A DNA stretch of 34,829 nucleotides from Candidatus Sigynarchaeum calidifontis. Its GTDB lineage: Archaea > Asgardarchaeota > Lokiarchaeia > Sigyniarchaeales > Sigyniarchaeaceae. The notes beneath the pieces were generated by a model that had not been told where the DNA came from, ran no database searches, and saw nothing but the letters and a program-made list of their open reading frames with translations. Positions 932 through 4,601 of the stretch are shown here, piece by piece. The stretch lies in assembly GCA_030587475.2 (NCBI GenBank), contig JAUQYZ020000137.1:1-34829 (forward strand), in the 5' to 3' direction. The position numbers and the translations under genes are program-made. Within the stretch, counting starts at the first letter, position 1. Every line of letters begins with the position of its first letter.

Positions 932-1624
932 TTATAAAGATGGATTGAAGAACTCCGCGATTTTCATCAAGATCTCATCATGAAGCATGACATCATAAAC
1001 GCGGTAGGGAATCAATTGACCCGGCTTGGTTTTAAAGACTTCGGCGAAAAAGCCATAATCGGCCACCGCATCGATAACCGAGATCCGCCGCAGAACCTCG
1101 AGCTTGTATTTTTCGAGGATAAAACCGATCGGCTTGTCGGCACGCAAGAGATCGTCCTGGAAATCCTTGCCCAAGCGATATAATGGAGTTAATGATATCG
1201 CGAGAGCAAGGTTCTTGTCATTAGCGTGCAGAACCACTTTTCTATAGTTAAACGATGCGCCGCGAGAAATGTGTAGATAGGTATAGATGCTGTCGATTAT
1301 TTCTTCACCGGATAGCCCGACGATGACCTGGTTCAAGGTCTTGACCCGGACACGCGTGGTGGGAAGGTCCTGGATCGATTGCAATGCTTGCGTGACGGAA
1401 CCATTCGTCGTGAGAAGGATTTTCAGTATCGGGCTTAGCTCGAGCCCGTATTTTTTTTTTATATCGATGACGGCTTGGTGCGTGCCTATTATATCGAGAT
1501 ATCGCGTGTTGTGTATTAAGATCGCCAAAAACTTGTTGATGTCGGAGACGGCTTCCTTTAGCGAGCCAATCCCGCAAGACATCGTTTTTCGATCACGTGA
1601 TAGATCACGATCGTCAGTAGACAC
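932..1624 (-). CDS. DUF98 / chorismate pyruvate-lyase (4-hydroxybenzoate synthase)-like protein
   Basis: KILLTTNGSVTQALQ, R-x-V-x-L, DLLRADKPIGFILEKYKLE and C-terminal RVYDV...IAEFF match the UbiC/DUF98 pattern; GTG start uncertain. Confidence 0.8.
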   Translation of the reverse strand: MSTDDRDLSRDRKTMSCGIGSLKEAVSDINKFLAILIHNTRYLDIIGTHQAVIDIKKKYGLELSPILKILLTTNGSVTQALQSIQDLPTTRVRVKTLNQVIVGLSGEEIIDSIYTYLHISRGASFNYRKVVLHANDKNLALAISLTPLYRLGKDFQDDLLRADKPIGFILEKYKLEVLRRISVIDAVADYGFFAEVFKTKPGQLIPYRVYDVMLHDEILMKIAEFFNPSL

Positions 1625-1638
1625 GTTGTTTCAAGCCT

Positions 1639-3015
1639 CTATCGCGCATTCGATTTCGTGATCCAGTCAAGTATTCGCCGCTTTTTGTCTATTGCGGATT
1701 GATACGCACCCTGAACGAGGGCATTCATCCTTTCCTGGCTCGATGCATCCTTTTTTTCACCGATCACCTTCTTGATTGGCGTGTAAGCGGATTCCCGGAA
1801 TCGTGGCACCATTTCGACCGTGCACCCGTTAACAAGATGCATCTGTATACCTTTTCCCCTCTTGCATTGGCCGATCTTCTTTACCTTGATGTTTTTTTCC
1901 CCCATCATCGCGATGATAGCACTTGTAAAGGTGGGCTTGCAAAAAACCAGAAGTGCATCAAGGGAGACGCCGAGATAATCCGTTCCCGTGCTATCAAGAA
2001 GATCTAGCACGTCTTTATTCACGAGCGCCCGGATTTCTGGCTCGTGAACATCGGCTCCAAGGTTGGAATCCCGCAGGATCTCGAACAAGTCACCTCGCAA
2101 GCCTCCATTCGTGACATCACTGCAGCAATATATGCCCTCGAGCAGATCTTGCCTGTCAAGGAGCGCATTAATGGCTTGGACAAACTTGATGTTGAGCGTG
2201 TGGACGATCGCATCGGGTTGACTGTTGTATATGGCAGTCGTGGCGATCGTCCCCCCGCCGGCTCCTTCTGTCATCAAAATGTCGCATTCGAGAGCGATGT
2301 CCTTCCGGGCTAGAATTCTGTCGCATATACCTACGCCGGCGATGCCCCCCGTGATTCGATCCCCGATGACCATATCACCACCGATGCGAAGCGTCGATCC
2401 GGCAGTGATCGGGACGCCGGCCAGTTCCGCAACGCAGCTGACGCCGGCCATGAAGTCGAACAGCTTCGAGATGTCACAATCGTCACCAAGGTGGATGTCG
2501 ACCATCATCGAAATGGGGCGCGCTCCTTTAACGAGCAAGTCCCGGAGGCAAGCGCGTGCCACGTGGAACCCAGCGATGAATGGATAGTTGCTCAACCTCG
2601 AGTGCATCCCTTCCATTTTCGTCACGATGAATTTTTTCCCGTCATTCGAGTTAATGACAACGGCGCCCGCGTCATCCATCGATTGAGGTGCAAGGAATGC
2701 AGATTGACCCGTGCTTGCCATTTTTGTTATGAACTCGTGGGCGACGAAATCTCCCATTCCACGACAACCAACACCTTGTTCACCGATCGTGAGTACAGCC
2801 TTTTCCATCGTAAGAATATCCTTGATGATGCCTTCCCGCGGCCCGACACGGGACTTCTTTACCTCTTCAAGAACGGACTTGCTAAGTTGCAACAACATGC
2901 TTTCATCGAGCGCTGGCTTGAATAATTTATACAGTTCCTTCAATCGATCGATTATGGCCTCATCCGGGTTATTTGCATCGAGCATGTGGTTCGCGATGCC
3001 TTCTAGGTCTGTCAT
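1639..3015 (-). CDS. Archaeal PurM/AIR-synthase-related ATP-dependent enzyme of unknown function (PurM-like2 type)
   Basis: N-terminal DLEG, GVGCRGMGDF, DDAGAV, EGMHSRLSNYPFIAGFHVARACLRD, GSTLRIGGDM and DVTNGGLRGD motifs. Confidence 0.8.
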   Translation of the reverse strand: MTDLEGIANHMLDANNPDEAIIDRLKELYKLFKPALDESMLLQLSKSVLEEVKKSRVGPREGIIKDILTMEKAVLTIGEQGVGCRGMGDFVAHEFITKMASTGQSAFLAPQSMDDAGAVVINSNDGKKFIVTKMEGMHSRLSNYPFIAGFHVARACLRDLLVKGARPISMMVDIHLGDDCDISKLFDFMAGVSCVAELAGVPITAGSTLRIGGDMVIGDRITGGIAGVGICDRILARKDIALECDILMTEGAGGGTIATTAIYNSQPDAIVHTLNIKFVQAINALLDRQDLLEGIYCCSDVTNGGLRGDLFEILRDSNLGADVHEPEIRALVNKDVLDLLDSTGTDYLGVSLDALLVFCKPTFTSAIIAMMGEKNIKVKKIGQCKRGKGIQMHLVNGCTVEMVPRFRESAYTPIKKVIGEKKDASSQERMNALVQGAYQSAIDKKRRILDWITKSNAR

Positions 3016-3183
3016 CGAGTACCCGCCTCAAAGATTATACTGCACAAGAATTCGCCAATACATCATCTTTTGCCAAAATAGTAAAAAGTATTTAGAAAAC
3101 GGAATGAAGAGAAATGCGTGAACCGATTTACCTTTCCGATCGGGCAGTTCAGATGAAAAGAACTAAGGGGATCATCACAAGAT

Positions 3184-4197
3184 ATGAAAATCCGGATAAC
3201 AACGCCGTGCAGGCTCCATGCGACGTTAATCGACATGAATGGCTCGATTGGGAGAATTGACGGCGGAATAGGCTTCACGCTTTCAAATCCGAGTTGGAAA
3301 ATCGATTTTGAGACGAAAGATTCACCGCCACTTAGCCTTGACGTGCCAAAAGAAGTGGAGGGTAATTATATCTTCGAATTAATATCGGACATCCTTAGCC
3401 ATCTTGGTTTAAGCTCGGATAAAGCCAGTATATCTATTAAGATAAGGGAGATAGTTCCCCGCCACGTTGGACTGGGATCCAAGACCCAGCTTGCGCTGGC
3501 GCTTGGCGATGGCATCTCCCGCCTTTTAAAGCTCGAAAACACGCCCTTGCCAAAGGAAATCCTTGCCACGACTGTCAAGCGAGGCGGAACGTCAGGGATA
3601 GGGGTCACGTCCTATTTCCAAGGGGGTGTTATAATCGACGGGGGCCATGAATACGGCGCTGGGAAGGAAAAGGAATCGTTCTTACCGTCCTCGGCATCAA
3701 ACGCGAAGCCGGCGCCCGTCCTCTCCAGGGATGACTTGCCCGGGGAATGGCGTGCCGTGATCGGCATTCCAATGCTTGAAAGTGGAGCGCACGATGCTAA
3801 CGAGGTAGAAATATTCAAACATCGCTGCCCGGTTCCTATTTCCGAGGTACAGCAGCTCGCTCACGTCATTCTTATGAAAATGCTGCCGGCAATCAAGCAG
3901 CAAAAATTCAAGGAGATTTGCGAATGTATCAACTTCTTTCAAGACACGGGATTCAAAAAAGTCGAAGTGGGGCTACGAGGGCATGCATATCGGCAAATGC
4001 TTCAAGACTGGCGTGATGCGGGTGCACCATGTGCTGGCATGTCCAGCTTCGGCCCAGCCATCTATAGCCTTGCAGAATCCGAGGCACAAGCTATCGAACT
4101 GCGTAAATCCATCGATTCCATAATGAAGCCGCGCGGTGGAATTTCACACATCAGCAAACTGCAGAATACCGGGGCTTCCATTATTTACTTGACGTGA
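3184..4197 (+). CDS. mptG: beta-ribofuranosylaminobenzene/phenol 5'-phosphate synthase (RFA-P synthase, GHMP fold)
   Basis: TPCRLHATLIDMNG..GRIDGGIG, PRHVGLGSKTQL, RGGTSGIG, FLPSSAS and GMSSFGP motifs. Confidence 0.9.
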   Translation: MKIRITTPCRLHATLIDMNGSIGRIDGGIGFTLSNPSWKIDFETKDSPPLSLDVPKEVEGNYIFELISDILSHLGLSSDKASISIKIREIVPRHVGLGSKTQLALALGDGISRLLKLENTPLPKEILATTVKRGGTSGIGVTSYFQGGVIIDGGHEYGAGKEKESFLPSSASNAKPAPVLSRDDLPGEWRAVIGIPMLESGAHDANEVEIFKHRCPVPISEVQQLAHVILMKMLPAIKQQKFKEICECINFFQDTGFKKVEVGLRGHAYRQMLQDWRDAGAPCAGMSSFGPAIYSLAESEAQAIELRKSIDSIMKPRGGISHISKLQNTGASIIYLT

Positions 4198-4202
4198 TCG
4201 AC

Positions 4203-4601
4203 ATGAACGACATTGAAACAAACGTTGTTGACAAATATTTCGATGCATCCATCACGGACAGGGAACGTGCATGCTTCGAGGCTGGTATAAAGCTCGGCGC
4301 GATATTTCACAGCATCATCGGCATACCAGTCGTGAATAAGGAAGAGGTAATGAGAAAAATCGAGGATGGCGTTATCGCCTCTTTCAGGAACCAGCCGTTC
4401 GTCAAGGATCTTCGCTTCCGCATCAACATCGACAACGGGAAGCAATACACGAAGCAGCATGAATTCGATTACACGCTCATCAAGGAATCCATGATCGATT
4501 TGGAGCTTGACCTGGTCTACAAGCAGACCCGTGTTTTAGGAAAAATCCAATGGATTCCCGATCTCGGTTACCCGCTCATGTTCTTGAAGGAAATCAAGTG
4601 A
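4203..4601 (+). CDS. mptD: Archaeal dihydroneopterin aldolase (MptD, DUF381)
   Basis: YF...TDRERACFEAGIKLGAIFH..IGIPV, QPFV and C-terminal LGYPLMF; ATG 4203 has GTGA SD 5 nt upstream (alternative GTG 4194). Confidence 0.85.
   Translation: MNDIETNVVDKYFDASITDRERACFEAGIKLGAIFHSIIGIPVVNKEEVMRKIEDGVIASFRNQPFVKDLRFRINIDNGKQYTKQHEFDYTLIKESMIDLELDLVYKQTRVLGKIQWIPDLGYPLMFLKEIK

Follow-up and report, generated by a model that had tools for sequence, protein, structure and literature searches.

A 34,829-nucleotide stretch of DNA from Candidatus Sigynarchaeum calidifontis, a member of the Asgard archaea (contig JAUQYZ020000137.1 of assembly GCA_030587475.2; here called the window), carries a gene of the PurM/AIRS superfamily, referred to below as the PurM-like gene, in a cluster of genes for the biosynthesis of tetrahydromethanopterin (methanopterin, H4MPT). 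Methanopterin is the C1 carrier of methanogens, of anaerobic methane oxidisers and of the Wood-Ljungdahl pathway of Asgard archaea and Bathyarchaeia, and several steps of its synthesis still lack a gene. The PurM-like gene is followed on the same strand by a gene of the DUF98 chorismate pyruvate-lyase family, and this pair diverges from mptG and mptD, which overlap by 4 nt, across a common 168-bp spacer (Table 1). The gap between the PurM-like stop codon and the GTG start of the DUF98 gene (position 1624) is 14 nt (bases 1625-1638), or 56 nt should the DUF98 gene in fact begin at its first in-frame ATG. MptG scored 295.2 bits against TIGR00144 (cut-off 113.5) and 326.5 bits against NF040726 (cut-off 328) in the NCBIfam scan, MptD scored 97 bits against PF04038 (cut-off 25) in the Pfam scan, and the DUF98 protein scored 57.1 bits against PF01947 (cut-off 22). 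A gene for a P-loop ATPase of the MinD/ParA/CooC type is convergent on the DUF98 gene. The open reading frames (ORFs) and domains described in the original prediction, which was made from the DNA letters of the window, were recovered by the ORF map and profile scans, as were the 14-nt gap and the divergence of the PurM-like gene from the genes for MptG (β-ribofuranosylaminobenzene 5'-phosphate, RFA-P, synthase) and MptD. It had also placed cooC next to the cluster; an ATPase of that type does adjoin, but the name cooC is not established, because no CooC-specific model passes in the Pfam and NCBIfam scans, in which the superfamily models AAA_31, CbiA and ParA match and the MinD models score far under their cut-offs.

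The PurM-like protein matches both Pfam domains of the superfamily, PF00586 (AIRS, 41.4 bits, cut-off 24) and PF02769 (AIRS_C, 36.9 bits, cut-off 23.1), and in the NCBIfam scan it passes no curated model, in agreement with its original description as an uncharacterised orphan; the purM model was not among the matches. Its best curated score is for ThiL (TIGR01379, 50.8 bits against a cut-off of 184.15), and the other scores are 36.9 bits for SelD (TIGR00476, cut-off 125), 30.9 bits for HypE (TIGR02124, cut-off 251.6) and 28.5 bits for PurL (TIGR01736, cut-off 525.75). An exhaustive profile search of 1.8 billion representative sequences returned about 30 full-length clusters at E<1e-70, the remaining stronger matches being fragments, and below the family there is a sharp drop to ordinary PurM-family proteins of about 330 amino acids at E~1e-7. 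A homolog search seeded with a Methanobrevibacter member returned Methanobrevibacter matches only. The longer representatives comprise one HhH-GPD fusion and N-terminal extensions without domains, and a fusion (Rosetta-stone) search of proteins longer than 800 amino acids found none for the family, which is weak evidence. Named members come from Asgard archaea (Loki, Hel, Thor, Hod, Heimdall, Odin and Sigyn groups), Hecatellales (Bathyarchaeia), one Sulfolobales genome, one Methanosarcinaceae metagenome-assembled genome and, in very large numbers, Methanobrevibacter. In public records they are named "AIR synthase-related", "hydrogenase expression/formation protein" (KEGG K07388) or, rarely, thiamine-monophosphate kinase (ThiL). 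The literature searched contained no paper that gives the family a function or ties it to methanopterin.

Conservation is exceptionally strong: members from Loki-type archaea and Methanobrevibacter are about 40 % identical (40-50 %), and 60 residues are invariant across 23 diverse members in the family alignment. The nucleotide- and metal-binding motif of the superfamily, D-x4-G-A-x-P, is present as RDLLVKGARP, with D159, G164 and P167 invariant, and the acidic residues D173, D179 and D181 are likewise invariant. An N-terminal extension of about 100 amino acids contains an invariant, family-specific loop, GxGxRGxGDxxxH, and further invariant family motifs are GxHSRLS, GSTLRxGGD, DxTNGGxRGD and FRExxYTxxK. 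Position 83, a cysteine in the glycine loop, is Cys or Ser, with Ser in many members. The AlphaFold2 model built on the family alignment (predicted local distance difference test 93, predicted template modelling (TM) score 0.91) has a PurM fold with an N-terminal helical region of about 100 amino acids and a long C-terminal helix, both additional to HypE. In a Foldseek search of the PDB the closest structure was HypE, at 19 % identity and a TM score of 0.85 by target; SelD, ThiL, PurM and PurL came next, with E-values from 4e-22 to 1e-14 across the five. Because the curated models fail, the C-terminal cysteine of HypE is absent (the C-terminus reads ...DWITKSNAR, without cysteine) and the cysteine of the glycine loop is often serine, the protein is an orphan branch of the PurM superfamily.

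The comparison with characterised relatives points in the same direction. HypE, a hydrogenase maturation protein that catalyses the ATP-dependent dehydration of carbamoyl-cysteine, is the nearest solved structure (that of Thermococcus kodakarensis) and has a core of similar size, but it differs in its catalytic C-terminal cysteine and in lacking the extra N-terminal region and long C-terminal helix. The glycine-rich N-terminal loop (GVGCRGxGD) before the PurM core recalls the cysteine/selenocysteine-lysine loop of SelD; here, unlike in SelD, many members have serine instead of the cysteine, and arginine takes the place of the SelD lysine. ThiL is the best-scoring curated model and the name on some public records, and in one lineage the gene follows thiDN, but the score falls far under the cut-off, and 150 of the 151 Asgard genomes have a ThiL-type gene, distinct from the PurM-like gene where both occur; in genome G000 (89 % complete) only weak ThiL matches were seen (best E 3e-27). 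A role as ThiL substitute was rejected on account of this separate gene. By curated models and signature residues the PurM-like protein thus falls outside the PurL, PurM, ThiL, HypE and SelD families, and the public names "hydrogenase expression/formation protein" and thiamine-monophosphate kinase are not supported by its sequence. The ThiL, HypE or SelD activity named in the original prediction as a finding that would speak against it is not indicated by the models.

For the gene neighbourhood, about 20 kb around the PurM-like gene was taken from 20 Asgard genomes of eight families and the ORFs were clustered; with the window this gave 21 loci. The neighbours include DUF447 at 20 of the 21 loci, MptD at 18 and MptG at 15, and other recurrent neighbours are a dihydropteroate synthase-like (DHPS-like) protein (TIGR00284), DUF1464, a DmrX/AfpA flavoprotein, MptE and a COG1665-type nucleotidyltransferase. 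The Loki-type families have the order DHPS-like, DUF1464, DUF447 and then mptD-mptG divergent from the PurM-like gene; in families f5 and f19 the PurM-like gene, DUF447 and mptG are co-directional; and in families f9 and f20 mptE-pfkB-mptD is divergent from the PurM-like gene, which is followed by radA and DUF447, with mptG elsewhere. This variation of gene order and orientation between families argues for selection over inherited synteny. Outside the Asgard archaea, the PurM-like stop codon overlaps the mptG start on a Hecatellales contig, and the PurM-like gene and mptG are convergent neighbours in another lineage. An independent scan of Joint Genome Institute (JGI) metagenomes gave 80 loci with the PurM-like gene, 25 of them with H4MPT genes beside it; many of the remaining contigs are short, and on 13 contigs with at least 4 kb on each side no H4MPT gene was seen beside it. 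A maximum-likelihood tree of 95 family sequences places the rows that have H4MPT neighbours in the Loki clade and among the other Asgard and Bathyarchaeia branches. The clustering with H4MPT genes, for which the original prediction had suggested a check, therefore recurs across Asgard families, Bathyarchaeia and metagenomes and exceeds what chance would give.

The phylogenetic profile covered 151 genomes from across the Asgard phylum, and this one phylum only. The PurM-like gene was present in 41 genomes, mptG in 66 and DUF447 in 66, the DUF447 set comprising the same families as mptG save for single genomes of f13 and f14. Every one of the 41 bearers of the PurM-like gene is among the 66 genomes with mptG and DUF447, a co-occurrence with H4MPT genes of the kind that the original prediction required, and the gene was found in none of the 85 Asgard genomes without mptG. 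Among mptG bearers the distribution is all-or-none by family: the gene is present in f2, f3, f5, f9, f10, f19 and f20 and was not found in f11, f13, f14 and f28, with none in the 19 genomes of f13 or the three of f14, two of which are closed. MptG of f13 and f14 scores lower as a group, at 142-220 bits compared with 237-367 bits. From gene context and co-occurrence, it is likely and well supported that the PurM-like gene belongs to methanopterin biosynthesis; the conserved and rearranged neighbourhood bears out this part of the original prediction.

Two further genes that touch on this distribution were considered. The f13 methanopterin clusters without a PurM-like gene (L068-L071, L078 and L079) have the order DHPS-like, mptE, mptA, a 128-amino-acid ORF, DUF447, mptG, DUF1464 and ATP-grasp_3, with pyrimidine genes adjoining, and their MptG scores (175-220 bits) lie below those of genomes bearing the PurM-like gene. 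The ATP-grasp_3 gene was rejected as a functional replacement for the PurM-like gene: it occurs in 90 of the 151 genomes, PurM-like bearers included, and is not complementary to it. In family f9 a second orphan paralog of the PurM superfamily, of 344 amino acids (L080:7312-8346(-) in G006, with the same position in G082, G017 and G056), sits with a methyltransferase gene and is divergent from an operon of mptG, DUF1464, dmrX, DHPS-like, mptA and nucleotidyltransferase genes. This paralog scored 133 bits against HypE (cut-off 252) and 122 bits against ThiL (cut-off 184), and it was set aside as a pathway enzyme because its presence in 118 of the 151 genomes shows that it is not pathway-specific.

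Several observations bear on the step itself. The chorismate to 4-hydroxybenzoate activity is established for the mycobacterial DUF98 member only, and the window protein fails the cyanobacterial chorismate-lyase equivalog NF037993 (19.4 bits against 175); from its family membership it probably supplies 4-hydroxybenzoate. A DUF98 gene lies beside the PurM-like gene or in the same cluster at metagenome loci L113/L123/L128, L120 and L131, and the window and metagenome links together represent four separate positions in the family tree and three gene orders, so that the pairing first noticed in the window holds beyond it. The control genomes of Methanocaldococcus jannaschii and Methanosarcina acetivorans have PF01947 as well. 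The patchy occurrence of this family in the Asgard genomes, the controls and some metagenome clusters suggests patchy acquisition of a 4-hydroxybenzoate source. PabB scored over its cut-off in none of the 151 Asgard genomes, most of which are without any TrpE/PabB-type gene (f13 and f14 have none at all), so the arylamine must come by a non-PabB route; PabB as an alternative arylamine source in genomes without the PurM-like gene is for the same reason unsupported. On Methanobacteriales-type contigs hisH (TIGR01855, 222 bits), itself after cfbD, directly adjoins the PurM-like start or overlaps it (Table 1), an arrangement kept in two clades of the Methanobrevibacter-containing branch. It recalls the PurQ/PurL pairing, and may reflect a shared glutaminase or simple synteny.

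PurL of the small type (FGAM synthetase), which works with the PurQ glutaminase and PurS, is among the closest known relatives. It has the superfamily fold and ATP-binding motif in common with the PurM-like protein, the chemistry proposed here is the same, with ATP phosphorylating an oxygen whose place nitrogen then takes, and hisH, a class I glutaminase gene, stands directly upstream in Methanobacteriales as purQ does with purL. PurL differs in being a duplicated unit of about 720 amino acids where the PurM-like protein is a single unit without the FGAR-AT linker, and a separate true PurL is encoded in the same window; further, the glutaminase adjoining the homologs scores as a true HisH, and the pairing is one of adjacent genes. 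By analogy, the PurM-like protein probably works like PurL or PurM, through ATP-dependent O-phosphorylation followed by displacement.

In the proposed scheme, DUF98 would convert chorismate to 4-hydroxybenzoate, which MptG would join with phosphoribosyl pyrophosphate to give ribofuranosyl-hydroxybenzene 5'-phosphate (RFH-P). The PurM-like enzyme would then phosphorylate the phenol oxygen of RFH-P (or of its keto tautomer) with the gamma-phosphate of ATP, making a leaving group, and nitrogen would displace the phosphate, either, in the manner of PurL, as ammonia that may derive from glutamine, or as aspartate followed by PurB. The product, RFA-P, would pass to the DHPS-like enzyme. MptG can use 4-hydroxybenzoate (White 2011, cited by Brown et al., PMC3261824), and in M. 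jannaschii RFH-P is phosphorylated and condensed with aspartate to an N-succinyl intermediate (ribofuranosyl-N-succinylaminobenzene 5'-phosphate, RFSA-P), from which PurB releases RFA-P (White 2011 via PMC3261824). This route is alike in its pathway position and in its ATP-dependent phosphorylated-phenol intermediate, and unlike a PurL-type reaction in that the nitrogen donor is aspartate, with PurB; the activating and condensing enzyme has no assigned gene (PMC3261824), and no later assignment for the RFH-P activation step was found in the literature searched. The ATP use, substrate, nitrogen donor and step of the PurM-like enzyme are what we infer; the data themselves establish its fold and superfamily, its orphan status, its clustering and co-occurrence with H4MPT genes and the recurrent DUF98 link.

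That the PurM-like enzyme performs the phenol-to-arylamine step is suggested by the DUF98 link, the lack of PabB, the hisH gene upstream and the activation of oxygen with ATP in the PurM superfamily; the assignment is the reading that we judge most likely, though a tentative one, to which we give somewhat less than an even chance. The more specific version, in which a single-unit PurL-like amidotransferase phosphorylates RFH-P on oxygen and replaces the phosphate by ammonia, drawn in Methanobacteriales from a co-transcribed HisH glutaminase, is rather doubtful. Several observations weigh against the phenol-to-arylamine assignment. Neither the gene nor a PabB was found in 25 of the 66 Asgard genomes that carry mptG and DUF447 (f13, f14, f11, f28 and others), so not every organism with the pathway needs the enzyme. 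PF01947 was found in only one of the 151 Asgard genomes, that of the window. In f9 and f20 the PurM-like gene lies beside mptD-pfkB-mptE and far from mptG, which would suit a step in the pterin branch equally well. A 33-row clade of the tree, with Methanobrevibacter, Methanosarcinaceae and many metagenome rows, has no H4MPT neighbours, its surroundings being lineage-specific housekeeping genes. We know of no PurM-family enzyme that uses aspartate, and the only biochemistry on record uses aspartate and PurB, not ammonia or glutamine (White 2011 via PMC3261824). The original prediction had offered the phenol-to-arylamine conversion or another ATP-dependent step; its placing of the enzyme in the pathway stands on clustering and co-occurrence, while the conversion itself is plausible but weakened by the 25 mptG-bearing genomes without the enzyme, the scarcity of DUF98 among Asgard genomes and the published aspartate donor.

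The same clustering and co-occurrence would fit an enzyme of the H4MPT pathway that acts at a different ATP-dependent step, such as the phosphorylation, in the manner of ThiL, of a phosphomonoester (the 5-phospho-alpha-ribosyl end ahead of hydroxyglutarate attachment, or hydroxymethyl-dihydropterin phosphate) or the opening or reduction of the ribofuranosyl ring. Several late side-chain steps also lack genes, the top curated model, although far under its cut-off, is that of ThiL, which phosphorylates a phosphate, and the divergent position opposite mptD-pfkB-mptE in f9 and f20, far from mptG, would agree with it. Late steps, however, are needed by all methanopterin users, and the gene is missing from more than a third of the mptG-bearing Asgard genomes; MptE, which by itself forms the pterin diphosphate in a single step, is found together with the PurM-like gene in the clusters and in G000; and neither the recurrence of DUF98 nor the overlap with mptG in Hecatellales is explained. 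We regard a different step as rather unlikely. The all-or-none distribution over mptG-bearing families, with the lower-scoring MptG of f13 and f14 as a hint of a different pathway variant, could instead mean that the enzyme makes a lineage-specific variant of the pterin cofactor or an optional decoration and takes no part in the core pathway. Against this, the family is conserved as a core enzyme would be, in its identity between Loki-type archaea and Methanobrevibacter and in its invariant residues, and the gene is abundant in Methanobrevibacter, whose methanopterin is of the standard form, so that such a role appears improbable.

A function outside methanopterin synthesis, as a housekeeping maturation factor or thiamine-related kinase with a fortuitous neighbourhood, would account for the homologs of the methanogen clade and Sulfolobales, whose neighbours are cfbD-hisH, MutL, CoA-biosynthesis genes and a ribosomal operon, for the Hecatellales copy, which also follows thiC and thiDN, and for the public annotation as K07388 or thiamine-monophosphate kinase. 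Against this, the PurM-like gene was found in none of the 85 mptG-less Asgard genomes, whereas over the whole set of 151 ThiL was found in 150 genomes and the second orphan PurM paralog in 118. The HypE, SelD and ThiL models fail, the HypE-type C-terminal cysteine is missing, and the linkage to H4MPT genes survives many rearrangements in both Asgard archaea and Bathyarchaeia. An unrelated function is on these grounds very improbable.

Table 1 Features of the window, and of homologous loci carrying an insert or an upstream hisH gene
Feature	Position	Strand	Remarks
PurM/AIRS-superfamily orphan gene (PurM-like gene)	1639-3015	-	458 amino acids; AIRS and AIRS_C Pfam matches
DUF98 / Rv2949c-like chorismate pyruvate-lyase family gene	932-1624	-	230 amino acids; PF01947 match
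Divergent intergenic region	3016-3183		168 bp, A/T-rich boxes inside; sequence reading
mptG, beta-RFA-P synthase family (GHMP-kinase fold)	3184-4197	+	TIGR00144
mptD, archaeal dihydroneopterin aldolase type	4194-4601	+	PF04038
MinD/ParA/CooC-type P-loop ATPase gene	119-910	+	AAA_31 and CbiA matches
ORF without family match	4613-5182	-	189 amino acids; directly after mptD, opposite strand
Roadblock/LC7-domain protein	5195-6277	-	360 amino acids; beyond the 189-amino-acid ORF after mptD
PurL	16883-19837	-	984 amino acids, FGAR-AT linker; side observation
PurC (SAICAR synthetase)	19868-20857	-	adjoins PurL
Insert-bearing site of PurM-like gene, L021	2392-2448	-	
Insert-bearing site of PurM-like gene, L019	1954-2010	+	
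Insert-bearing site of PurM-like gene, L023	1954-2010	+	
Insert-bearing site of PurM-like gene, L083	1332-1387	-	
Insert-bearing site of PurM-like gene, L084	749-804	+	
Insert-bearing site of PurM-like gene, L085	1194-1249	-	
Insert-bearing site of PurM-like gene, L099	4849-4905		metagenome example (of 12)
Insert-bearing site of PurM-like gene, L115	1972-2028		metagenome example (of 12)
hisH and PurM-like gene, L033	7403-9365		Methanobacteriales-type contig
hisH and PurM-like gene, L061	7390-9365		Methanobacteriales-type contig
hisH and PurM-like gene, L141	6397-8314		Methanobacteriales-type contig
hisH and PurM-like gene, L148	1518-3444		Methanobacteriales-type contig

Other genes of the window were recorded alongside the cluster. 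In a comparison of 26 loci, 10 had a homolog of the P-loop ATPase close to the PurM-like gene, and membership of the ATPase in the system is uncertain. Genes of this MinD/ParA/CooC type recur near methanopterin clusters in several Asgard families (L042, L044 and L050-L056), and a 276-amino-acid relative is found in f13 clusters without the PurM-like gene (for example L069:5912-6742). PurC- or PurA-like enzymes and PurC paralogs have been proposed in the literature for the condensation of RFH-P with aspartate; the PurC of the window looks, from its sequence, like an ordinary purine gene, and PurL and PurC, the window's own purine genes, lie 14 kb from the PurM-like gene. The window PurL is long for an archaeal "small" PurL. 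Family f9, too, has Roadblock-domain genes close to the cluster (for example L051:10581-11162), like the one beyond mptD in the window.

In six of 41 Asgard genomes the PurM-like coding sequence carries an insert of 29 or 30 nt at one fixed site, between GFHV and RAALRD, and the 30-nt form is found in 12 of 76 metagenome loci (Table 1). The window's gene is uninterrupted, the equivalent site lying at about 2550-2560. The 30-nt form has an in-frame TGA or TAA and the 29-nt form shifts the frame; removal of the insert restores the frame and the family consensus FHVTRAALRD. In all six folded sequences the minimum-energy structure is h-B-H-B-h', with an outer helix of 9 bp, a central helix of 4 bp (ACGU/GCGU), a 3-nt bulge on each of the two strands and an inner hairpin; relative to shuffled sequence, the folding z-scores lie between -2.5 and -5.3. 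Among 16 distinct sequences 94.5 % of the cells are paired, against 33-54 % with slid partners, and four pairs of the inner helix show compensatory double changes. The archaeal tRNA-splicing endonuclease has the bulge-helix-bulge as its substrate motif, and the insert in Loki-type PurM-like genes is, from its sequence and predicted fold, a candidate mRNA intron cut by this enzyme. Bulge-helix-bulge introns in protein-coding genes are documented for the crenarchaeal cbf5 gene (PMC2738675), and mRNA introns go unmentioned in a 2026 preprint on the tRNA introns of Asgard archaea. The insert may be the first bulge-helix-bulge intron in an Asgard protein-coding gene, and it bears on the reach of the tRNA-splicing machinery onto mRNAs in the closest prokaryotic relatives of eukaryotes. 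Single in-frame stops (TAA, TGA or TAG) were also seen in otherwise full-length matches to PurM2, a second PurM paralog (G034, G033, G016, G052, G118 and G011), and to the ATP-grasp gene (G011, G033 and G093); these may be further coding-sequence introns, recoding or sequencing errors.

The phenol to aniline step of methanopterin synthesis is, to our knowledge, the only such biological conversion known, and it was reportedly described biochemically in 2011. The analysis turns a single gene adjacency into a defined and conserved candidate family, for which the phenol-to-arylamine step is plausible and which is a good candidate for direct biochemical testing. The family is abundant in rumen and gut Methanobrevibacter, and the KEGG group K07388, under which its members are filed, tracks with methane emission. 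Were the amidotransferase reading true, the PurM-like protein would extend the known reactions of PurM-family enzymes, for the first time, to an aromatic carbon. A confirmed role in methanopterin synthesis would correct a widespread misannotation, as "hydrogenase expression/formation protein" and "thiamine-monophosphate kinase", and would provide a new methanogen-specific target.

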